This document shows, piece by piece, positions 3,339 through 43,450 of a stretch of DNA of 64,000 nt. The DNA comes from an uncultured delta proteobacterium (GTDB taxonomy: Bacteria > Desulfobacterota > RBG-13-43-22). The notes below the pieces were generated by a model that made no database searches, was not told the origin of the DNA, and saw only the letters and a list, made by a program, of their open reading frames with translations. The DNA lies in contig CAWBOS010000013.1 of assembly GCA_963790475.1 (NCBI GenBank), positions 224,001 through 288,000 on the forward strand, written 5' to 3'. Position 1 is the first letter of the stretch. Every line of letters starts with the position of its first letter. The translations under genes were made by a program, and so were the position numbers.

Positions 3339-3707
3339 AAACAACATAACGGATACATTGAAGCGGAGAGTAAACCCGGCAAAGGGACCACCTTTAATAT
3401 CTATCTTCCGAAAACGGAAACAATAGAGAAGGATATCGGAGAAGCCAGTGAAGACCTCGCCCGGGGATCAGAGACCATCTTGGTGACCGAGGATAGTCAG
3501 GAGGTTAGAAGATTCATCAGGGAGATACTGACTAAGAAAGGCTATGCCGTCATAGAGGCCTTTGACGGGGAACAGGCGGTCCAGAAATACAGGGAATATC
3601 AAAAAGACATCGACCTTCTCCTCCTGGATGTGGTCATGCCCAAAAAGAACGGTCAGGAAGTTTATGAAGAGATAAGGACAATTCACTCCTGTGCCGCGTC
3701 GCATTAA
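3339..3707 (+). pseudogene. hybrid histidine kinase fragment (HATPase tail plus partial receiver domain)
   Basis: KQHNGYIEAESKPGKGTTFNIYLP in frame with ILVTED...LLLDVVMPKKNG; truncated at both ends. Confidence 0.8.
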
Positions 3708-5470: not shown

Positions 5471-6045
5471 AACGAAATGATTCTGTAAAAAGAACTGTAA
5501 TGCGATTATAGAAGGCAAGAAGGCCCTTTTTCACAGGGGTGAGCCGGCGAAGGTATCTGTGACCTTTTAATCGGGGACCCTTTCATTCCTTTTCCGCCTG
5601 ATAAGGTCGGAATCAAACCCGCTTCAGGTCTGCGGTCCTGCAATTATAAATAGGTGTCGCGTCAATTGACCCTTGGCCGATTGCCTGGCGGATGGTATTT
5701 GGATCTCCATAGAGAGTTGCAGGACGTGGTTTATTAGATCCGACCATCGGGCTAACCGTCTGCCAGAGGACCGGGTCAACGGATTTGCCGTTTTCCCGGA
5801 CCCAGTCAGGAATGGGTTTCCCCGCTTCCTCCCCATTTTTCCATCAACCGGAAATCAATAAATCCACTAACATGACAAAGCGGAGGAAATTTCTTTAGAC
5901 TTCTCCGAAACTATTTGGATTGGCTCCTTTATTAAATAATACTCTATTTCCCCAGCAAAAATACAGCCTTCACCCTATTCACCCTTTTAATGACTGCTGG
6001 TAGGTTAATAAAATATTGATAACCCTATTTACAAGGAGGTTTGTG

Positions 6046-32768: not shown

Positions 32769-35700
32769 ATGAAATGCTTTAAGTGCGGTTTTGAGAACAG
32801 GAACGGGGCAAAGTTCTGTGGAAAGTGCAGATCAAAGCTCACACAGTTCTGTCCCTCATGTAACGCAGAAAATCCACCGGAGACCATCTACTGCGATCAA
32901 TGCGGCCAGGCCCTGGGAGAAGCCCTTCGCACCTCTCCAACGCCGACCGCTTTTGATAAGGCCCAACCCCAATCCTACACCCCAAAACATTTAGCCGAGA
33001 GGATCCTGAACATCCGCAGTGCCCTGGAAGGGGAGCGTAAGCTGGTCACGGTCATGTTTGCCGATGTGGTGGGCTTCACCAGTCTCTCGGAGAAGCTCGA
33101 ACCAGAAGAAGTGCACCTGATTATGGAAGGCTGCATCAAGATCCTGATGGATGAGATCCATAAGTATGAGGGGACGATCAACCAGTTCACCGGGGATGGG
33201 GTTATGACCCTGTTCGGTGCCCCCCTGGCCCATGAGGACCATGCCCAGCGCGCCTGTTATACGGCCCTGGCCATCCAGAAGGACCTGGCCGAATACAACG
33301 AGAAGATCCAGAAGGATTACGGCCAGGAATTCCGGATGCGTATCGGCCTCAACTCCGGTCCCGTGGTCGTCGGTTCCATCGGGGACGATCTGCACATGGA
33401 TTATACGGCCATCGGAGATACCATCAACCTGGCCTCCCGTATGGAAGGCCTGGCCCAACCCGGGACCGTTCTTCTCTCCAGGCACACCCACCGCCTGGTC
33501 AAGGACTACTTCGATCTGAAACCAATGGGTCCCTTGGAAGTGAAAGGTAAGGAAGAGCCCCAAGAGGCCTTTGAGCTGGTCAAGGTCGGGGGAGCGGCTA
33601 CCAGGCTGGAAGCGTCTATGGCCAGGGGGCTTACCCGGTTTGTGGGCCGACGACGGGAGATCGAAACCCTCCGGGAGGCTTTTATTAAGGTCCAATCAGG
33701 AGAGGGCCAAGTCATGGGCCTGGTCGGCGGAGCCGGGGTGGGAAAATCCAGGCTGATCCTCGAGATGAGGAAGATGTTTCCTCAAGAAGGATATCTTCAT
33801 CTCCAAGGAAGGTGCCTTCACTATGGAAGCTCCATCGCCTTCTCGCCCCTGTTGGACATCCTGAGGTCTTACTTTGAGATCAAAGAGAGCGATCCGGAGT
33901 ATTTAATCAAGCGAAGGATGAGAGAGAAAATCCTTGCCCTTGATGAAAAGCTAAACAATATCCTCCCACCTTTCCAGGAACTTTTATCCCTTATTGGGGA
34001 AGAGGATGCCTATCTGAAGCTTGAGCCCAGGCAGAAAAGAGAAAGGATCTTCGAGTCCCTAAAGGATCTTTTTGTTCGGGAGAGCCAGAACCAGCCCGTG
34101 ATCCTGGTTATAGAGGATCTGCACTGGATCGACAAGACCTCGGAAGAGTTTCTGGATTATTTGATCGGCTGGCTGGCCAATACCTCCATTTTTTTGATCC
34201 TTCTTTACCGGCCCGAGTACATCCACCGCTGGGCCAGTAAATCCTATTACAATAACCTCGGCCTGGATCAATTGTCCGTCAAGGCCAGCGCCGAGTTGGT
34301 TCAGTCCATCCTGGGGGAAGGAGAAATCGTCCCCGAGCTGAAAGACCTGATCCTGGGGAAAGCCGAGGGTAACCCTCTTTTTATGGAGGAGCTGACCCTT
34401 AGCCTGCTGGAGAACGGTTCTATCCTGAAAACCGGAGATCAATATGTTCTGAGCAAAAAGGCTTCAGACATTCAAGTCCCTGATACCATCCAGGGGATCA
34501 TCGCGGCCCGGATAGATCGTTTGGAGGAGAGTCTGAAGAGAATCATACAGGTAGCCTCGGTCATCGGGAGAGAATTTCCGTTCCGTATCCTTCAGGCCAT
34601 TGTGGAGATGAAAGAAGAGTTGAAATTCCACCTCATCAATCTTCAAAGCCACGAGTTCATCTACGAGAAGAGACTTCTCCCGGAACTGGAGTACATCTTC
34701 AAGCATGCCCTGACCCGGGAAGTGGCCTATAACAGCCTGCTTTTAAAAAGGAGAAAAGAGATCCACGAGAAGACCGGCAAGGCCATAGAAGGGCTCTATC
34801 AGGAAAGGCTGGAGGAGTTTTATGAGGTGCTGGCCTATCATTATTCCCGGAGCGATAGCCTGGACAAGGCCTGCCAGTATTTGAAATTATCCAGGAAGAA
34901 GTCCACCCAGAACAATTCTGTTTGGGAGGCCTATCGTTTTTACCAGGAAACACTTAGCCTCCTCAAGCAGATGCCGGAAACGGAGGAAAACAATAGGGAG
35001 CAGGTCGAGGTCATTCTATTAATGGCGGTTCCGATGAGAATGCTGGCTTATCCGGGAGATTCCTTCAAGTTCCTTCAAGAGGGGGAGAGGCTGGTCAAAG
35101 AGCTTAAGGATGGAAAAAGCAGGACATACTTAAAAAACTTCATAGGCCTATATTATTCCCAAAGAGGGGATCCCCTGCTGGGAAGAAAATATCTGGAGGA
35201 TTCTTTTGCCGAGGCCGAAAAGATACAGGATATTGAGATAATCGCCCCGGCCAGCATTGGCCTTTGTGTTTCTTATACAGTTGAAGGAGAGTATAAAAAA
35301 ATAGTACTTATAGCTCCCAAGGCCATCGCCCTGCTGGAGAAAACGCACCGGGAGTCTGAATTTTTTGGGTCAACTGGCAATCCATATTCGCAATTGCAAG
35401 GCTGGTATGGGCGTAGCTTGGCAGCTTTGGGAGAATTCAGGACCGGAGAGCAGTTATTGGAAAAGGCCCTTTCTTCTGCGCAGAAGAGCAATCATCTCTT
35501 TAGCATTGGCGGGGTAGAATTGCAGTATGGGATTCTATTTATGTTTAAAGGGGATGGAGAAAATATCATAAAACATTGTCAGAGTGCCATTGAATATTTT
35601 GAAAAATCGCAAGCGGTTGTCCTTTTACCAAGTGTCTGGAGTTTCATCGGTTTTGGATATTATTTTTTGGGCGAGCTTACAAGCGCTTTAGCGTTCATGG

Positions 35701-36146
35701 AAAAAGGCCTTAAGATGCAACAGGATATCGGATTACCCCTCTATTTGTCCTTGATTCATTCCTGCTTAAGTATGTTTCATGGTGATTCAGGCCATTGGGA
35801 AGAAGCCAAGGTCCAGGCAGAGCAGGCGCTGAAGTTCGCCCAAACAAATTTTGAAAAATTTTTTGAAGGGTTATCATGGCTTCTTCTGGGAAGGACCGTT
35901 GGAAAAATGGAAAAAGCACAACTCGATATAGCAGAGGAGTATATCCTAAAAGGAATGAAGATATTGGAGGAACTGGGGATCAAACCAATTCTTTCCATAG
36001 GCAATTTTTACTTCGGGGAGCTTTATGCCGATGCGGTTCAGAAAGAAAAAGCCCTGGAACACCTAATGAATGCCGAAGCCTTGTTTCAGGAGATGGGAAT
36101 GGATTATTGGCTGGGGAGGACCCGGGAGATGTTGGGGAAGCTCTGA
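32769..36146 (+). CDS. second tandem zinc ribbon-cyclase-STAND ATPase-TPR paralog
   Basis: FADVVGFT, FTGDG, GDTINLASR; GGAGVGKS, IEDLHW, GNPLF. Confidence 0.93.
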   Translation: MKCFKCGFENRNGAKFCGKCRSKLTQFCPSCNAENPPETIYCDQCGQALGEALRTSPTPTAFDKAQPQSYTPKHLAERILNIRSALEGERKLVTVMFADVVGFTSLSEKLEPEEVHLIMEGCIKILMDEIHKYEGTINQFTGDGVMTLFGAPLAHEDHAQRACYTALAIQKDLAEYNEKIQKDYGQEFRMRIGLNSGPVVVGSIGDDLHMDYTAIGDTINLASRMEGLAQPGTVLLSRHTHRLVKDYFDLKPMGPLEVKGKEEPQEAFELVKVGGAATRLEASMARGLTRFVGRRREIETLREAFIKVQSGEGQVMGLVGGAGVGKSRLILEMRKMFPQEGYLHLQGRCLHYGSSIAFSPLLDILRSYFEIKESDPEYLIKRRMREKILALDEKLNNILPPFQELLSLIGEEDAYLKLEPRQKRERIFESLKDLFVRESQNQPVILVIEDLHWIDKTSEEFLDYLIGWLANTSIFLILLYRPEYIHRWASKSYYNNLGLDQLSVKASAELVQSILGEGEIVPELKDLILGKAEGNPLFMEELTLSLLENGSILKTGDQYVLSKKASDIQVPDTIQGIIAARIDRLEESLKRIIQVASVIGREFPFRILQAIVEMKEELKFHLINLQSHEFIYEKRLLPELEYIFKHALTREVAYNSLLLKRRKEIHEKTGKAIEGLYQERLEEFYEVLAYHYSRSDSLDKACQYLKLSRKKSTQNNSVWEAYRFYQETLSLLKQMPETEENNREQVEVILLMAVPMRMLAYPGDSFKFLQEGERLVKELKDGKSRTYLKNFIGLYYSQRGDPLLGRKYLEDSFAEAEKIQDIEIIAPASIGLCVSYTVEGEYKKIVLIAPKAIALLEKTHRESEFFGSTGNPYSQLQGWYGRSLAALGEFRTGEQLLEKALSSAQKSNHLFSIGGVELQYGILFMFKGDGENIIKHCQSAIEYFEKSQAVVLLPSVWSFIGFGYYFLGELTSALAFMEKGLKMQQDIGLPLYLSLIHSCLSMFHGDSGHWEEAKVQAEQALKFAQTNFEKFFEGLSWLLLGRTVGKMEKAQLDIAEEYILKGMKILEELGIKPILSIGNFYFGELYADAVQKEKALEHLMNAEALFQEMGMDYWLGRTREMLGKL

Positions 36147-36321
36147 TGAGAAGAGAACCAATGTCCGGATTAGAAACGGCCCATTTTTTTTGCACAGTTC
36201 AAATAGTAAGTGTTAATTTTTCGGAGTGGCAAGATAAAGCATTGTAGGTGTAAGCGATTGAAGAGTTATCTTGACACTGTCCGTCAACCCCAAATACTGG
36301 TCAGAACAAAAAATTTTAGTA

Positions 36322-36426
36322 AACATCCCAACCGAACCCCAACCTTTTTGGAGCGGGAAATGAAGTGGGAGTTTCAGAAAGTACCAATATGACGCCTCCA
36401 TGAAGGGTCATCCCTTTGTGGAGGCT
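36322..36426 (+). promoter_or_regulatory. conserved leader element, copy 1 (uORF MKWEFQKVPI plus GCCTCC...GGAGGC hairpin)
   Basis: Aligned by eye with copies 2-4; TTGACA-N16-AATACT promoter-like site at 36271-36298. Confidence 0.65.
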
Positions 36427-36537
36427 CTCCGGTTGGTTCGGTGGAAACCAATGGTTCAAATAGCATAAGGATGAAAACAAACCGACATTCATATTACCTA
36501 TCCCCCTAAGAGTGGTGGAATTGAAAAGGAGGTAAAA

Positions 36538-36828
36538 ATGGGAAGATATTTACTAATATGGGAAGCCGATGAGAGCAAAATTCCTATTAATCCTGAAGAG
36601 CGCAAGGTTGGATGGTTGGCTGCGATTGAAATGACAAAGCAGGATATTAAGACTGGGTTGACCAAGGATTGGGGATCATTTCTTGGACAAACCAAGGGAT
36701 TTAGTATCACTGAAGGGACTGAGGACGATGTTATTAGGGAAACCCTGAAGTATATCCCCTACTTTCGATTCAAATTATACCCTTTAGTATCCATTGAAAA
36801 ATTAGAAGCAGCCATAAAAGCTATATAA
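36538..36828 (+). CDS. small DUF3303-like protein
   Basis: AGGAGG RBS; KDWG.F...G..I.EGTE; paralog of 37919-38212. Confidence 0.75.
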   Translation: MGRYLLIWEADESKIPINPEERKVGWLAAIEMTKQDIKTGLTKDWGSFLGQTKGFSITEGTEDDVIRETLKYIPYFRFKLYPLVSIEKLEAAIKAI

Positions 36829-36879
36829 TTGGTTGAATGAAACTATGAACCTTAGGCAGGGTCAAAAGGCCCTGCCTGT

Positions 36880-36970
36880 AATCCTTGTGAAATGGGCTAT
36901 GAAGTGGGAGTTTCGGAAGGTTCCATTGTGAAGCATCTTTGGGGAATCAAACCCTGTAGAGGCTTTTTTG
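36880..36970 (+). promoter_or_regulatory. conserved leader element, copy 2 (MKWEFRKVPL plus terminator-like hairpin)
   Basis: ATG 36899 to TGA 36931, hairpin and T-run ending ~30 nt before the next start. Confidence 0.6.
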
Positions 36971-36998
36971 CTTTAACCATTTAAGAAAGGAATGAGAC

Positions 36999-37286
36999 AT
37001 GAGTGCATATGTAATCTTCGATGTGGAAATCCGCGACCTTGCACGTTATCAGGAGTATATGAAAGCTGTGAAGCCCGCCGTCGAAGCAGCTGGAGGAAAG
37101 TATCTTTCACGAGGAGGAGCACATAAGGTTTACGAAGGGGACTGGCAGCCAAGGCGAGTTGTGCTTCTTGAGTTTCCGTCCATGGCAGCAATTGAAGATT
37201 TCTATAATGGATCCATATACCGCGAACTCAAAAGCATGAGAGACGAGTGCAGTTCTGCTCGGGCCGTAAGTGTTGAAGGCATTTAG
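36999..37286 (+). CDS. DUF1330 family protein
   Basis: GGKYLSRGG, EGDWQP.RVVLLEFPS. Confidence 0.92.
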   Translation: MSAYVIFDVEIRDLARYQEYMKAVKPAVEAAGGKYLSRGGAHKVYEGDWQPRRVVLLEFPSMAAIEDFYNGSIYRELKSMRDECSSARAVSVEGI

Positions 37287-37319
37287 TCAAAATATCACGC
37301 CAATGGCAACAGTGATGCC

Positions 37320-37420
37320 TAACTCAAACCTATTTGAAGAGGGAATGAAGTGGAATTTTCAGAAAGTACCAATACGAAGCCTCCATGAAGGGTTATCCCT
37401 TTGTGGAGGCTTATTTTTTT
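37320..37420 (+). promoter_or_regulatory. conserved leader element, copy 3
   Basis: ATGAAGTGGAATTTTCAGAAAGTACCAATA then GCCTCCATGAAGGG-TTAT-CCCTTTGTGGAGGC and T-run. Confidence 0.65.
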
Positions 37421-37488
37421 AATAACTAATTCTTCTTAATCCCATTTTACATTCAAATTTTTCCATTTAAATGAAAGGAGACAAAACA

Positions 37489-37809
37489 ATGCCTTAACTG
37501 ATAACAACCTTTTTATATCCAACCGATATAGTGCCTAAGGTGAGGGAGAGATATCAAGAAGCGTCAACAAAATATCCTCCTGATGAGAAATTGTATACCA
37601 CGCTTGTTCCAGTCGCTGCAAAAGCAACTCATGAAGGCATGCAGACAATAAATATTGTAGAAGTCAAGAAAGGAAAACTGGATGAAGCCTATCTTTATTT
37701 AGGAAAGATCATGAATATGTTCCAAAGTATCCAGGGTATTGAATACAGACTAGACATTTATGCTACGCTGGAAGATGGGACTAGTATGGTCCCAACTGGG
37801 CAATACTAA
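37489..37809 (+). pseudogene. small hypothetical protein with in-frame TAA at codon 3
   Basis: AAGGAG RBS then ATG CCT TAA CTG ATA..., in frame with ORF 37531-37809. Confidence 0.65.
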
Positions 37810-37918
37810 AATAGAAGACAAGGGGAAAACGCATAATTGTTTTGTATATATGTAATCGTCATCCGGGCTGTGACATTTACCTATAATTATAGATGACCTT
37901 TAAAAGGAGAGAAAAATC

Positions 37919-38212
37919 ATGGGAAAATATTTACTTTGGGAAGCTGACTGGACGAAAGTAGCTGTGGATCCGAAAGAGCGAGGAACTGGATGGAGTGTTG
38001 CGCAGGAAATGGTTTTGCAAAACCTTAAAAAAGGTATAATGAAAGATTGGGGATGCTTCGTATCGGAAGTTAACGGGTATGCCGTCGCTGAAGGAACTGA
38101 GGTTGAAGTTACGAACATGGTACTACAGTATATTCCTTTCTACAAGTTCACGGCAAAACCAATCGCTTCAATCAGTCAAGTAATGGAATCAACAAAAGCC
38201 ATGATGAAGTGA
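37919..38212 (+). CDS. small DUF3303-like protein, paralog 2
   Basis: MGKYLLWEAD...KDWGCF...AEGTE...YIPF aligns with 36538. Confidence 0.75.
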   Translation: MGKYLLWEADWTKVAVDPKERGTGWSVAQEMVLQNLKKGIMKDWGCFVSEVNGYAVAEGTEVEVTNMVLQYIPFYKFTAKPIASISQVMESTKAMMK

Positions 38213-38282
38213 ATGTGCAGTTTCACCGATTGAGCGAGTGATTTTTTTCTGTCCGGATAATAGTAAGCAAACTCTTTTAAGG

Positions 38283-38315
38283 AAGGCAGAGTCATCCTGG
38301 CTCTGCCTTTTTTTG
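38283..38315 (+). terminator. intrinsic terminator
   Basis: AAGGCAGAG...CTCTGCCTT followed by T-run. Confidence 0.7.
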
Positions 38316-38523
38316 CATATTTGAAATGGTAATCCTTAATTTTTAGTCCAGCTCCCAAGCAAGAGTTGTAGGTGTAATGGGTTAATTGGGGGGAGAACGC
38401 AATTTCTCGAGTGATTTAAAGTAGTTCTTCCTGAAATCCTCAAACTAACAATGTGAAAAAAACGCAAGAGTTTAAACCGTAATCAACCTCACTATTCGAT
38501 TAGCCTTCCTTTTTCTCTTAATG

Positions 38524-39790
38524 TTATCGGTTTGGTTTTTGTTGAAAACTTAGATCCGCTCCATAGGATGTTCCTGCACTGTTGGTGGCCACAAGGCGGT
38601 AATGATAAACGGTATAAAATCTCAGTCCGGTTATTCTGGCCGTAGCAGCAACATAACCTGTCCCGCTTCCGGCTGAATTAACCGTCGTGGCAGACCCGTA
38701 GGAAGTGGTCCGCCCCCACTGAAAGATATAGGTCGTTGATAAGCCGTTGGGATTAACCGTTCCATTCAAAGTGGCGGAATTAAAAATCACAGACGAGGCC
38801 GCGCCGGTATTGGCCACCGGTGCCTTGGTAACCGCAGAGAAAGTTGCTGTCACATTGAGATTCGAGTTCATGGTTACCCGGCAGGTGGACAATGTTCCAG
38901 AACAGGCACCTGACCATCCTCCGAAAACAGAGGTGGCATCAGGAATAGCTGTTAAGGTGACTCCCGTACCAGAAGCGAAAGTGGTCCCTACCGGATTAGT
39001 GGAGACATTGCCATTACCTGTCCCATTTTTGCTAACAGTGAGGGTATAAGTTGCTGAGGAAATAAGCGAAAAAAAGCTGCTATGGTGTGATTGGCGCTTA
39101 CGGAAGAAAAGGTGTAGGAAGTAATCGATCCTTTTGAGACACCGTCCACATTCACATTGGCAACCTTGTAACCGGAATTGGGGGTAATAGTGAATGTCTG
39201 TCCGCCCCCTGCCGGAACAGAAACCTGTCCGGAAGGGGAAATAGTCCCGCCAGATCCGGCCGAAGAAGTGATAATGTAAGCGGCCGAACCGTTTTCACTC
39301 ACCGTAAACACATTCCCGGCGACAGTCAGACTGTCTGAGCGGGTAATGCCGGTGTTGGGAGAAACCGTATACCTCATTGTTCCACTTCCAATACCGGACC
39401 CCGAATTAATCGTTATCCAGGAGGCAGAAGCCGAAGTCCCCCAATTACAACCAGCCTGAGTAGTGATGGACACACTTCCCGACCCACCGGAGGAGGGAAA
39501 AGAGGCACTTGAAGGGGATATGGCGTAGGTGCAGGAAGGGACCGTATAAATTACCTCATTGGAGAACCCGCTCTCTAACCCCTGGCTATTATAAGCAGTA
39601 GCCGCAATATAGTAAGTCAGTCCCAAAGTCAGGCCATTTAAAATGTAGGTGGTTACGTTACCCACATCTATTCTATTCTGGTAGTTTCCTGATTGCGTCC
39701 CGGAATAGATCTTATAACCGGCCAAGTCCGATTCGCTGTTGGGATCCCAAGTAAGTGAGACCTGAGCACAATGACCTGGCGGGCCAAGAT
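38524..39790 (-). pseudogene. surface protein (FN3, BACON, InlB-B-type repeats, FN3), frameshifted ~39065-39077 and lacking its N-terminus
   Basis: WDPNSESDLAGYKIY, CTYAISP, GTISPSG, FGGWSGACSG, LNGTVNPNG; break at an A7 run. Confidence 0.8.
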
Positions 39791-39801
39791 TAGAAAAAAG
39801 T

Positions 39802-39911
39802 ACTTCTATTTGTAAAGTACGGCCCGGCATAATCCCGTTTTCTTCAGAAGACCCCCTCCACCCCCCTGCCTTCTTTTTTTTCTTGAGCTTGCCTTTCCCT
39901 TGTTATAGACT
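39802..39911 (+). repeat. ~110 bp promoter-bearing repeat, copy A (TTGAGC-N17-TAGACT)
   Basis: Near-identical to 41778-41892; diverged copy at 43313-43430. Confidence 0.8.
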
Positions 39912-39982
39912 GATTCTATTAAAAGCAATCTCTTATCAAAAATTCATCAGGAGGCATAACAATAAAAAAAGGAGGAAAAAAT

Positions 39983-41698
39983 ATGAGCCCAAAGACCTTT
40001 TATCCCGAGTACAGTAAAAATTACCCTCTTCTGATCACGAACTTTATGAAAAGACCGCTAAGCATGTATCCGGATGATATCGCTACCGTCTATCGGAACG
40101 ATGATGGCAAGTATTTCCGGTTCACCTGGAGGGAATGGTACGCGCGCACCTGCCAGCATGCCCACCTCCTCAAGGCCTTAGGGGTTAAAGAGGGTGACCG
40201 GGTCGGCGCCATGGCGCTGAATCACCACCGCCATCTGGAGAACATTTTTGCCACCGTTGGCATAGGGGCGATTTCCCACCCCATCAATATCAGACTTTCA
40301 TTGGATCATATTGGCTACGTCATCACTCATGCCGAGGATTATGTCATCTTTTTTGATGAGATCCTCCTGCCTTTGGTCGAACTCCTTTACGACCGAATCA
40401 AGCCGGCCGTGAAAAAATTTGTCTATATGTCCGATAAACCGGGCCTGCCCAAGACCAAGATCGAGCCTCTGGTCGAATTCGAGGCCTTATTGAAGGAACA
40501 GCCGACCACCTTCGATTGGCCGGAATTGAGTGAAGACACGCATGCTGCACTTTATTACACCACCGGCACGACCGGTCTGCCTAAAGGGGCGCTGTACACC
40601 CATCGCCAGATTTATCTGCAATGTATTCATTCACTAGAAAGGGTGGGCAATTCGGTAACGCTGCCTGACGACCCGCCGCGACCTAATCAAACAAATTTTT
40701 TCGCAGTTATCCCCTTTTTCCATATCCATGCCTGGGGAACGCCCTTCATGATGGTTCATTCGGCGGCCAAGATGGTTTTTTCGAGCAAATATACCCCGGA
40801 TAGTTTCTGCGAGCTCATTCAGAATGAAAAAGTAAATGCCGCTGTGATGGTGCCGACCATGCTGGCCATGCTTTTGGAATACCCGGATCTCGATAAGTGG
40901 GATCTTACCAGTCTGGCCAGCATAACCATCGGAGGAGGCGCCTTACCACTTGGTTTAAAGAACAAAGCCGAAAAGCTTTTCCCCCATATGAGGGCCTCAT
41001 CCGGCTACGGTATGTCGGAAACGATGGCCGGTGTTATCACCGCCGTATTAAAAAGAGACATGGAGACTTGGCCGAAAGAGGAGATTGACAAGGTCCTGGT
41101 CAAGACCGGATTGCCGATGCTTCCTGCGATAGACGCCCGTGTCGTTGATGAGAACGGCAAGGATGTGCCTCACGATAACGAAACGATCGGCGAGATCATC
41201 CTGCGGGGCCATTGGATAACGGAACAGTACTTCAAAGATCCGGAGAAGACGGCCGTTGCCTGGCGGGGCGGTTGGTTCCACACCGGCGATGCGGCCAAAA
41301 TTGATCGGGACGGCTATATTATCATCGCGGATCGAATAACCGATGTCATCAGAAGCGGCTCCGAAATGGTACCCACGGTTCTTCTAGAGAATTTGACAAG
41401 CAATGCCGATTTCGTCTTGGAGGCCACCTATGTCGGTATCCCTGATGAAAAGTGGGGAGAAATACCGATGGCCCTGGTAAAGACAACGACCGGATCGAAC
41501 AAGAAAGAGGAGGATATCCTCAGTTTCCTCCAGGAAGAGGGCGTTGACAAAGGAAAGATTACCAAATGGATGCTTCCTGTATATGTCGCCTTTGTCGACG
41601 ATATCCCCAAGACAAGCGTTGGCAAATACGACAAGATAGCCGTCAGGAAGCAAATAGAGGAGTTTAAAGCCAAAGCCAAAAAGGTGCGTTCGGTATAA
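39983..41698 (+). CDS. fatty-acyl-CoA synthetase (AMP-binding)
   Basis: YTTGTTGLPKG, GYGMSET, WFHTGD, PKTSVGK. Confidence 0.95.
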   Translation: MSPKTFYPEYSKNYPLLITNFMKRPLSMYPDDIATVYRNDDGKYFRFTWREWYARTCQHAHLLKALGVKEGDRVGAMALNHHRHLENIFATVGIGAISHPINIRLSLDHIGYVITHAEDYVIFFDEILLPLVELLYDRIKPAVKKFVYMSDKPGLPKTKIEPLVEFEALLKEQPTTFDWPELSEDTHAALYYTTGTTGLPKGALYTHRQIYLQCIHSLERVGNSVTLPDDPPRPNQTNFFAVIPFFHIHAWGTPFMMVHSAAKMVFSSKYTPDSFCELIQNEKVNAAVMVPTMLAMLLEYPDLDKWDLTSLASITIGGGALPLGLKNKAEKLFPHMRASSGYGMSETMAGVITAVLKRDMETWPKEEIDKVLVKTGLPMLPAIDARVVDENGKDVPHDNETIGEIILRGHWITEQYFKDPEKTAVAWRGGWFHTGDAAKIDRDGYIIIADRITDVIRSGSEMVPTVLLENLTSNADFVLEATYVGIPDEKWGEIPMALVKTTTGSNKKEEDILSFLQEEGVDKGKITKWMLPVYVAFVDDIPKTSVGKYDKIAVRKQIEEFKAKAKKVRSV

Positions 41699-41740
41699 AA
41701 CGCATCTTCCGACATTCACATTATTTAACTTGATAAGCTC

Positions 41741-41773
41741 AAAGCCGCCATATTAACCTATGGCGGCTTTTTT
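41741..41773 (+). terminator. intrinsic terminator
   Basis: AAAGCCGCCATA...TATGGCGGCTTT plus T-run. Confidence 0.8.
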
Positions 41774-41777
41774 ATTG

Positions 41778-41892
41778 ACTTCTATTTGTAAAGTAAGGCC
41801 CGGCATAATCCCGTTTTCTTCAGAAGACCCCCTCCACCCCCCCTGCCTTCCTTTTTTTTCTTCTTGAGCTTGTACCAACCTTTCCTTATACT
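41778..41892 (+). repeat. promoter-bearing repeat, copy B (TTGAGC-N17-TATACT)
   Basis: Direct repeat of 39802-39911. Confidence 0.8.
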
Positions 41893-41998
41893 CTTTCCAC
41901 CAAAACAATTTGTTTCAAATATTAAACCTGTTTGTTTCGCGGCAATAGACTCACGACTTATTAACCAATAATTTAAATGATAAAGCGAGGGATTGGAA

Positions 41999-42508
41999 AT
42001 GGCGAGAATAGCTTATGTGGAGAAAGAACAGGCGACTGAGAAAACCCGAGATATCCTGAATAAGAACAACTGGAGCAATATCTTTCGTATGCTCGGGCAT
42101 TCGGAATCACACCTTTATAACTATTGCCGGCTGGGTAATGCCATTCGTTTCAAGGGCGAGCTTGATCCGGGTTTGCGGGAAATCGCCATTACCCGGACCG
42201 GCATACTTTGTCATTCAGATTACGAAGTCATAGCCCACAAGCGTCTGTGTGCTGCCGCCGGGGTCTCACAAGAAAAAATCGACGCCCTGGAAAAAGGGGC
42301 TGAGGCGGATGTGTTTACCGATGCCGAAAAGGATGTCCTTCGTTTTACCGACGATGTGGTTAAAAACGACCGGGCTGGCGATGAAACCTTCAATGCCGTG
42401 GCGAATCGCCTGACCCCCGGGGCACTGGTCGAACTCCACCTGGCCATCGGATTCTACATCATGACTTCGAAATTCCTGTTGACCTTTGATGTTGATTTGC
42501 AGTCCTGA
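41999..42508 (+). CDS. carboxymuconolactone decarboxylase/AhpD-like protein
   Basis: NIFRMLGHS, LREIAITR, YEVIAH, IGFY. Confidence 0.88.
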   Translation: MARIAYVEKEQATEKTRDILNKNNWSNIFRMLGHSESHLYNYCRLGNAIRFKGELDPGLREIAITRTGILCHSDYEVIAHKRLCAAAGVSQEKIDALEKGAEADVFTDAEKDVLRFTDDVVKNDRAGDETFNAVANRLTPGALVELHLAIGFYIMTSKFLLTFDVDLQS

Positions 42509-42655
42509 GACCACCCCCTCTTCGTAGGGGAGAGGGAGTATCTCCGGACGAACTTTACCTGGTCATTGAAGAACCGTTATATTCCACCCTTTTAATTATA
42601 TTGACAATTTTCTTCAAAAATGCGACAGACTTATTCCTATACTAAATTATTGAAT

Positions 42656-42771
42656 AACATCCCAACTTAACCCCAACCTGCCTGGAGTGGGTAATGAAGT
42701 GGGAAGTTTCAGAAAATTCCAATATAAAGCCTCCCATGGGTCTTTCAGTTCCATAGGAGGCTTCTTTTTTT
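42656..42771 (+). promoter_or_regulatory. conserved leader element, copy 4
   Basis: AACATCCCAAC..AACCCCAACCT shared with copy 1; ATGAAGTGGGAAGTTTCAGAAAATTCCAATATAA then hairpin and T-run. Confidence 0.65.
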
Positions 42772-42803
42772 ACCAACATTTCATTTCTAAGGAGGTATCA
42801 AAA

Positions 42804-43109
42804 ATGATCAAAGTCAGCGTGTTGTATCCGAATGAAGAGGGCAAGAAATTTGACATGATCTATTACTGCAATAAACACATTCCCATGTGCCAGGAAAAGT
42901 TAGGGTGTATTCAAGTGGCTGTAGAACAGGGATTGGCCGGTGCGGCCCCGGGAACCCCAGCTCCTTATATCGCCATGGGCCATCTGTATTTCGATTCCCT
43001 GGAGGCGTTGCAGGTCGCCTTTGAACATCACGCCGCAGAGATCATGGCCGATATTCCCAACTACACTGAAATCGCCCCTGTGATGCAGATCAGCGAGGTA
43101 AAAATGTAG
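42804..43109 (+). CDS. EthD family protein
   Basis: MIKVSVLYP, FDMIYYCNKHIP, ADIPNYT, QISEV; AAGGAGG RBS. Confidence 0.92.
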   Translation: MIKVSVLYPNEEGKKFDMIYYCNKHIPMCQEKLGCIQVAVEQGLAGAAPGTPAPYIAMGHLYFDSLEALQVAFEHHAAEIMADIPNYTEIAPVMQISEVKM

Positions 43110-43312
43110 CTATACCGGATACTGGATAATCCGAATGTCCTGGTTTTGCTTCAAACGGGGACGTCAGAGGCGGGGCCATCCTGGCCCTGCCTCTTTCCCA
43201 CATTTCAATCCGTAATGCTTAACATTTCTTCAAACTCCATAGGCTTGACTCGTAGGTGCAAGTTCCCAAGCAGGAAGAGTCTGCTTCTTTCTTTCCTCTT
43301 ACCCCATTCGAT

Positions 43313-43430
43313 ATGTAAAGTCCGGACCGGCAAAGTTCCATTTTCTTCACAGGACACCCCTCCGCCCCCTGGCCTTCTGCTGTATTTTCTGCCATAATTC
43401 TGCCTTTTCCTTCAATTATACTCTTCCCAT
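43313..43430 (+). repeat. promoter-bearing repeat, diverged copy C
   Basis: TGTAAAGT.CGG.CCGGCA...TTTTCTTCA...CCCCTCC.CCCCCT...TTATACTC. Confidence 0.65.
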
Positions 43431-43450
43431 CAATAAAAAAATCCTTCCGG

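Follow-up and report, generated by a model that had tools for sequence, protein, structure and literature searches.

Why does one short intergenic element recur in front of small, co-directional genes in the genome of an uncultured delta proteobacterium, and does it act there as a structured RNA, as a translated leader, as a gene in its own right or as a passively spreading repeat? The question is raised by a stretch of 64,000 nucleotides (nt) of this genome (NCBI GenBank assembly GCA_963790475.1, contig CAWBOS010000013.1, positions 224,001 to 288,000 of the forward strand), hereafter called the window. In this window, an initial annotation had pointed out four copies of a leader element, made of a conserved core and a terminator hairpin, as a candidate attenuator or riboswitch. 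Two readings of the core had been offered, namely (a) a ten-codon leader peptide with its ribosome-binding site and (b) a TGAAG/TTTCA hairpin whose TGG loop could form a pseudoknot with a downstream CCA. The element proves to be real, widespread, undescribed and absent from Rfam. With moderate confidence, we propose that it is a cis-acting, ribosome-dependent transcription attenuator, with a geometry resembling that of the MsrDL leader, which would have been reused at many loci.

The four copies were recovered at the sites first described, each as a covariance-model match on the forward strand (Table 1), with nhmmer E-values ranging from 5e-24 to 8e-31. The shared motif gave three pattern matches in the window, against 0.02 expected from shuffled sequences, and copy 2 lies, by our own reading of the sequence, three mismatches away from the search pattern. 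Regarding the hairpin, the GCCTCC...GGAGGC arrangement is present in all four copies, its inner sequence differing while the pairing is kept, and a T-run follows it in copies 2 to 4 and is lacking in copy 1, as annotated. Likewise, the peptides MKWEFQKVPI (copy 1, ATG at 36360) and MKWEFRKVPL (copy 2, ATG at 36899) were read as given. The stop codon of copy 3 is indeed replaced by CGA, leaving its short open reading frame (ORF) open to 37422, and one additional A after codon 4 shifts the frame of copy 4. Between the end of the model and the next start codon there are 104, 26, 69 and 33 nt for copies 1 to 4, respectively (111 nt for copy 3 if its gene starts at the GTG codon).

The description as a four-copy element holds for the window and falls short for the family, which counts 14 copies in the source genome (6.34 Mb, 20 contigs), spread over four contigs. 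With a mean column identity of 59% among these 14, the copies within one genome appear to be old. A first covariance model, built from 13 of them and run over 60 related genomes, gave matches at E≤0.01 in 19 of the 20 genomes belonging to the same family and, outside it, 8 matches in one genome and 2 in another. Of the 21 genomes that make up the order, 17 have matches at E≤1e-6, the maximum being 14 copies and relatives having up to about 10. No copy passes this threshold in four genomes of the same genus that are nearly complete, although degenerate relatives of the short ORF and stem are visible there. With a second model, built from 75 copies, no additional copy was found in the source genome and only one weak match in the four genomes without strong matches. 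These 75 copies, aligned by covariance model, are the basis of all genome-copy counts given below; MAFFT misaligned the hairpin (RNAalifold recovering 4 pairs only), and covariance-model alignments were therefore used. The copies are related to each other and the counts are thus not independent, and the organisms are known from assembled genomes alone.

Beyond these genomes, a pattern scan of named genomes returned matching records titled 'uncultured delta proteobacterium', while five loci titled Acidobacteria or Bacteroidia were discarded as chance matches (two had no terminator and matched the 5' half only weakly, three did not match at all). A look-up of sequencing runs containing this DNA listed five, all of them DNA runs, the best of which contains 0.35 of the sampled words. 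More than 100 additional copies were found in metagenome contigs: at least 120 contigs matched, and 107 unique copies among the matches listed were used for the counts. The search pattern comprised codons 7 to 10, the stop codon and the first stem bases only, the start codon and the GGAG motif being left unspecified. Finally, the Rfam 15 scan of the window gave no match at gathering thresholds and, at E≤10, only chance-level matches to unrelated families, which agrees with the earlier remark that no named riboswitch class could be recognized.

The short reading frame and the hairpin

Aligned over the 75 genome copies, the core begins with GGAG, which a spacer separates from the start codon; ten codons follow, then a stop codon abutting the first base of the hairpin, whose stem has about 14 pairs, and finally a T-run. 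The distance from the ATG to the stem takes its canonical value of 33 nt in 61 of the 75 genome copies, and in-frame length variants, one codon longer or shorter, are also seen. Upstream of this core, 48 copies have a leader of about 45 nt which is C/A-rich, G-poor and contains repeated AACC motifs. It is absent in the other 27, including copies 2 and 3, which lie within one operon; such operon-internal copies have kept the GGAG, the short ORF and the terminator.

To tell a translated leader from what resembles a riboswitch in the bare sequence, a single unbiased test suffices, namely in which phase the start codon and the ribosome-binding site lie. Among the 107 metagenome copies, a start codon stands exactly at in-frame codon 1 in 99 (ATG in 93, GTG in 6), while any other offset has at most two ATG, except for the ATG embedded in AAATGG. 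A GGAG motif occurs in 81 of them, and in 77 of these 81 exactly 6 nt separate its end from the start codon; this spacer varies freely, with 54 distinct sequences. An in-frame stop was seen in a single copy. Of the 75 genome copies, 70 have a start codon at the same place (68 ATG, one GTG and one TTG). We read this phase pattern as the probable signature of a translation start region and not of an aptamer.

The codons point in the same direction. Replacements in the ATG frame have a mean BLOSUM62 score of -0.14, versus -0.62 and -0.72 in the other two frames, a value reached by only 5 of 300 column shuffles. The amino-acid changes are K/R, Q/R, F/Y/I, E/D and I/L/M, and third positions vary in AAR, CAR, CCN and GTN codons, i.e., those for lysine, glutamine, proline and valine. 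The resulting peptide has a basic residue at position 2, an aromatic or hydrophobic one at position 5, Q or R at position 6 and then K-V-P-I. Comparative evidence from start and GGAG phase, codon counts and BLOSUM62 scores hence supports reading (a), a ten-codon leader peptide with a ribosome-binding site in front of a terminator. As a separate observation, orthologous copies near 1577k of contig C10 of the source genome and in three relatives (loci L008, L022, L062 and L065) have a stop at codon 6, which leaves an ORF of 5 residues. They keep the rest of the element with its terminator, the C-terminus encoded by the gene upstream looks cold-shock-like by eye, and these copies may represent a decayed or differently used variant.

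Regarding RNA structure, the terminator is where the evidence for pairing lies. Its hairpin has a median energy of -20.8 kcal/mol and is followed by a T-run in 66 of the 75 genome copies; 92% of the cells of its helix are paired, 11 of 14 pairs show compensatory changes, and a scan of all column pairs found high mutual information together with pairing in the terminator only. Reading (b) fared differently, with compensatory changes in none of the four pairs of the TGAAG/TTTCA hairpin and in none of the three pairs of the TGG:CCA pseudoknot (UGG:CCR in the family). These results bear directly on the possibility of a riboswitch, or of another ligand- or protein-binding structured RNA, in which the leader and ORF region would be the aptamer and the terminator the expression platform. 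Such an RNA would account for the high conservation upstream of the terminator, and 13 of 16 leaders do adopt one common nested fold, their C-rich segments pairing with GGAG..GGG and UGGGA. However, the two leader helices that recur in single-sequence folds are paired in only 72-73% of cases and have no compensatory support, and the 16 leaders, folded alone, gave z-scores of -1.56 to +0.74, no better than their shuffles. Moreover, the leader half is missing in 27 of the 75 copies, the downstream genes have no common metabolic theme and Rfam offers no match, even at E≤10. Because the proposed hairpin and pseudoknot lack compensatory changes and clear covariation is confined to the terminator, we consider a riboswitch very improbable.

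Proposed read-through of the terminator

An attenuator would be expected to face a gene, and 64 of the 75 genome copies are followed by a gene on their own strand; in 6 the following gene lies on the opposite strand, and 5 cases are unclear. This tally relies on simple calls of ORFs of at least 90 amino acids (aa), and copy 4 is counted among the five unclear ones although its EthD gene is in fact on the same strand. The proposed placement before co-directional genes is thus borne out. As the upstream gene is divergent in 10 copies, the element is not the terminator of that gene. Several downstream genes confirmed by Pfam start within 60 nt of the model end, namely DUF1330 (26 nt), EthD (33 nt), a sigma-54 activator (36 nt) and adenylate cyclases (56-60 nt); such distances leave no room for a promoter of their own, and these genes would therefore be transcribed only through the terminator. 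Three features expected of a ribosome-dependent attenuator are hence present, namely a short ORF with its ribosome-binding site and start codon, a terminator within reach and a co-directional gene that would depend on read-through.

Many copies also appear to have a promoter of their own, and others lie between genes of what appears to be one operon. In many leader-bearing copies, TTGACA and an extended -10 box are found 50-75 nt further upstream, from which it follows that the leader is transcribed. A strict sigma-70 pattern occurs on the same strand in 21 of the 75 copies and on the opposite strand in 6. Since a promoter scan of the whole window did not rise above shuffles (12 sites versus 10.5 expected), the argument for promoters rests on their conservation across copies. 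At least two different promoter contexts, as well as promoterless copies, share the same core. The leader itself is poor in G, at 10% compared with about 20% for its flanks, and has about two AACC motifs per 52 nt where the downstream control has 0.37 (metagenome loci L120-L239 and genome copies). An unstructured standby site for the ribosome, a site bound by a protein or one at which Rho loads would each be compatible with such a composition.

On this basis, we infer that termination is conditional. A ribosome at the last codons, or waiting at the stop, would cover the 5' arm of the hairpin, and much of it, because the stop codon touches the stem. With the terminator blocked in this way, RNA polymerase would continue into the downstream gene, and if no ribosome arrived in time, transcription would end at the T-run. 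In copies without a stop codon, the ribosome would translate through the hairpin and unwind it, with the same effect. The conservation of the peptide suggests a nascent-chain-dependent pausing at or near the stop codon; alternatively, the input could be the loading of the ribosome, controlled through the G-poor, AACC-rich leader, or a factor which the leader would bind. Up to 14 unrelated genes per genome would thereby answer to one ribosome-borne signal and form a 'ribulon'. In a bolder version, which we put forward as a doubtful possibility, the ten-residue peptide M-[KR]-x-x-[FYI]-[QR]-K-V-P-I would be a new arrest peptide. It would sense a small molecule or the translation state, hold the ribosome at the stop codon on the terminator and switch on up to 14 unrelated operons; it would be widespread in uncultured sediment and wetland bacteria, and the leader may add a second input through a binding protein or Rho.

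Several observations weigh against a ribosome-dependent attenuator. The column-pair scan and the pair counts revealed no alternative antiterminator helix, and the codon table no run of regulatory codons, so that neither of the two features of a trp-type attenuator, regulatory codons and competing helices, was found; a candidate antiterminator between GGAG or GGGAG and the CUCC of the 5' arm would have 4 possible pairs only, both sides being invariant. Other observations tell against a reading in terms of the peptide only. The stop at codon 11 is kept in just 26 of the 61 canonically spaced copies and lost in 35, to CGA in 15 and to other sense codons in the rest. Over all 75 copies, 41 ORFs reach a length of 12 codons or more and so enter or cross the terminator, 7 have fewer than 9 codons and some, copy 4 included, are frameshifted; the start position is occupied by ATA in four copies and by AAG in one. 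The isoleucine of codon 10 is encoded by ATA in 39 of 41 cases, which indicates that the nucleotide sequence is constrained too, or that the copies share a recent ancestor. Furthermore, the synonymous excess alone is not significant, being reached by 48 of 300 shuffles, and frame 2 is also nearly free of stops (a stop in 4 of the 107 metagenome copies). Finally, the absence of the element from four nearly complete genomes of the same genus indicates that it is dispensable.

The loss of stop codons also bears on another explanation, in which the element would be a stand-alone small gene, with its own promoter and terminator, releasing a free ten-residue peptide or a small RNA of about 140 nt acting in trans, any effect on neighbouring genes being incidental. 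The conserved peptide, the terminator present in nearly all copies and the strand bias of the sigma-70 pattern (21 versus 6 of 75) would all suit such a gene, and the C-rich motifs of the leader may be akin to the seed regions of C-rich small RNAs. However, with the stop lost in 35 of the 61 canonically spaced copies, a free peptide would gain arbitrary tails. The stop-to-stem spacing fixed in 61 of 75 copies, the orientation tied to the downstream gene (64 same strand versus 6 opposite), the lack of room for a promoter before several downstream genes and the absence of the C-rich leader in 27 of 75 copies speak against it too, and we regard a stand-alone gene as unlikely.

How far the similarity between copies extends is of importance for a further explanation, that of a selfish or passively spreading intergenic repeat, i.e., a promoter-plus-terminator module of about 260-300 bp with no sensing function. 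Among paralogous copies, similarity begins about 140-190 nt upstream of the model, runs through the promoter and ends sharply at the terminator, as a mobile module would have it. The patchy distribution (0 to 14 copies within one genus), the presence of other intergenic repeat families beside the element and the accessory nature of the neighbouring genes, mostly without known function, are also in its favour. Yet no terminal inverted repeats were seen in any of the four modules inspected, which yielded, besides the terminator hairpin, just internal repeats that were not consistent from one module to the next. Judged by their 59% mean column identity, the copies within one genome are old as well. 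The same core occurs in at least two promoter contexts and in promoterless copies, and is oriented toward the downstream gene. Moreover, the in-frame start, the GGAG spacing and conservative peptide changes have been kept across distant lineages, which drift would not preserve. A purely selfish repeat is for these reasons quite unlikely. Comparison with two relatives did not provide a clean empty site, synteny ending at the stop of the gene upstream of copy 4.

Genes and repeats of the locus

The features of the four copies and of the genes that follow them are collected in Table 1. The DUF1330 and EthD assignments made in the initial annotation were confirmed by Pfam, and so was, by its in-frame TAA at codon 3, the nonsense-broken ORF after copy 3. 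Conversely, the gene after copy 1, described as DUF3303-like, matches no Pfam family even at E≤1.

Table 1. Positions, in the window, of the parts of the four element copies and of their downstream genes
Feature	Position	Strand	Basis or remark
Promoter of copy 1, sigma-70-like (putative)	36271..36298	+	TTGACA, 16 nt, AATACT; 10/12 matches, best in scan of 36100-43300
Copy 1, whole match	36319..36434	+	Covariance-model match
Copy 1, 5' leader	36319..36359	+	Covariance-model match and composition; C/A-rich, G-poor, AACC motifs, then GGAG and spacer
Copy 1, short ORF	36360..36392	+	MKWEFQKVPI and TGA stop
Copy 1, hairpin	36393..36427	+	Directly 3' of stop; arms 36394-36407 and 36412-36425; no T-run
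Gene after copy 1	36538..36828	+	96 aa; Pfam scan, no family; paralog at 37919-38212
Copy 2	36858..36973	+	No C-rich leader; short ORF 36899-36931 (MKWEFRKVPL and stop), hairpin, T-run; between two co-directional genes
Gene after copy 2, DUF1330	36999..37286	+	Pfam E 7e-29
Copy 3	37305..37420	+	Short ORF from 37345, CGA in place of stop, reads through terminator to 37422
Copy 3, terminator	37377-37412	+	Terminator scan; 16-pair stem, T-run
Gene after copy 3	37489..37809	+	ATG at 37489, in-frame TAA at codon 3, frame open from GTG at 37531; no Pfam family
Copy 4	42653..42771	+	With C-rich leader; start codon ATG 42694; frame shifted by an extra A after codon 4; hairpin 42727-42763; T-run
Gene after copy 4, EthD	42804..43109	+	Pfam E 1.5e-8; start 33 nt after model end

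The link to genes for small alpha+beta barrel proteins, as initially proposed, holds in part. Small alpha+beta proteins of the DUF1330, EthD, tautomerase and GYD families are encoded downstream of the element, joined in metagenomes by DUF3303, NIPSNAP and dodecin, but adenylate cyclases, hydrolases, regulators, GroES and proteins without a family are found there as well. Esterases and other hydrolases, cupins, a nitroreductase, thioredoxin-like proteins, the sigma-54 activator and GroES complete this list, and 65 of the 97 metagenome ORFs have no Pfam family. According to Pfam, the genes downstream of the genome and metagenome copies share no metabolic theme, pathway or ligand. Class III adenylate cyclases account for 6 of 104 ORFs at genome loci and 8 of 97 metagenome ORFs, and their genes recur beside the element, being downstream of it at 6 genome and 8 metagenome loci.

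Within the window, the genes at 36538-36828 and 37919-38212 are paralogs of 96-97 aa, both without a Pfam family. With the DUF1330 gene and the broken ORF, they make up a co-directional array of four small genes, and a copy of the element precedes each of the first three. An array of small co-directional genes may recall an integron, and attC sites were considered and, on reading the sequence, rejected: the hairpin ends have no core or inverse-core sites, the copies are spread over four contigs and the genes behind some of them are large. An ORF of 1125 aa (32769-36146), the direct upstream neighbour of copy 1, looks like a zinc-ribbon, cyclase, ATPase and repeat protein, by eye and from its likeness to locus L052. 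In one related genome, the loci L009 (1864-2312) and L040 (1-449) share, outside the element, a segment of 449 nt with 93% identity. It belongs to the gene that follows one copy and lies ahead of the other, and suggests a segmental duplication around the modules.

Two further intergenic repeat families were noticed in the window. The first (36185-36310, 38283-38487 and 43190-43270) follows gene-end hairpins and is characterized by the motifs GTAAT..TTAA and TGTAGGTG; it has many short matches in related genomes, one of which is without the leader element (query about 3480-3630 and 5580-5790). One of its copies is located directly upstream of the promoter of copy 1, and in many other copies of the element a similar motif precedes the promoter by about 95 nt. 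The second (39803-39944, 41772-41924 and 43252-43446) contains a C-rich stretch, after which come a T-run and a promoter-like TTGAGC..TATACT. It occurs upstream of an acyl-CoA synthetase-like gene and of a 171-aa gene (41993-42508), as well as downstream of the EthD gene, and has many matches in four related genomes.

Relation to known systems

The closest geometry, and a solved precedent for it, is that of MsrDL, the leader of the macrolide-resistance operon mef/msrD, which works by ribosome-mediated transcriptional attenuation. There, a very short ORF with a Shine-Dalgarno sequence has, as here, its stop codon just before an intrinsic terminator. MsrDL is a hydrophobic peptide of 6 residues, encoded a single time ahead of a resistance gene, and it responds to a macrolide, whereas the putative peptide described here has 10 residues of basic and aromatic character and precedes unrelated genes, in up to 14 copies per genome.

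The pyrBI and rph-pyrE attenuators of E. coli also function without an alternative antiterminator, a ribosome translating as far as the terminator or across it, close behind the polymerase, suppressing the hairpin. This would fit the copies of the element whose ORF runs through the terminator, too. Unlike the element, these attenuators sense uridine triphosphate through polymerase pausing in U-rich stretches, are single loci and have peptide sequences that are not known to be conserved as such. The trpL, hisL and pheL leaders have in common with it a short ORF followed by an intrinsic terminator in the 5' leader. Such leaders require runs of regulatory codons and competing 1:2, 2:3 and 3:4 helices, whereas the element has at most one Trp codon, which is not conserved in metagenome copies, and no covarying alternative helix. 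With TnaC and SpeFL, which are metabolite-sensing arrest peptides of 24-34 residues acting on Rho-dependent termination at single loci, TnaC stalling at its UGA stop codon, the element shares a conserved nascent peptide, and the conserved Trp and Pro near the C-terminus are loosely similar.

As a multi-copy intergenic module which could alter the expression of its neighbours and whose copy numbers are patchy, the element also recalls Correia elements and miniature inverted-repeat transposable elements, small non-autonomous repeats that carry promoters or terminators. It differs from them by the lack of terminal inverted repeats, by its old, diverged copies and by its conserved translation start and peptide.

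Leader-peptide attenuators are usually single loci devoted to one pathway or resistance gene, while here a single type of ten-codon ORF precedes many unrelated genes. If the proposed attenuator is confirmed, it would provide a simple, testable handle on how genes are regulated in a lineage for which none of the records examined is of a cultured organism, together with a candidate for a new short arrest peptide. It would also be a second example of a ribosome-directed regulon. The first is the 'ribulon' proposed for mycobacteria, in which polycysteine short ORFs of the same sensory type are reported to stand at several loci, ribosomes coordinating the regulon (Canestrari et al., bioRxiv 10.1101/834739). 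The mycobacterial ORFs are leaderless, contain many Cys codons and control cysteine metabolism, their target being a structure in which the following ribosome-binding site is hidden (bioRxiv 10.1101/834739). By comparison, the element has a GGAG site and no codon run, would act on a terminator and precedes genes that are unrelated to each other.

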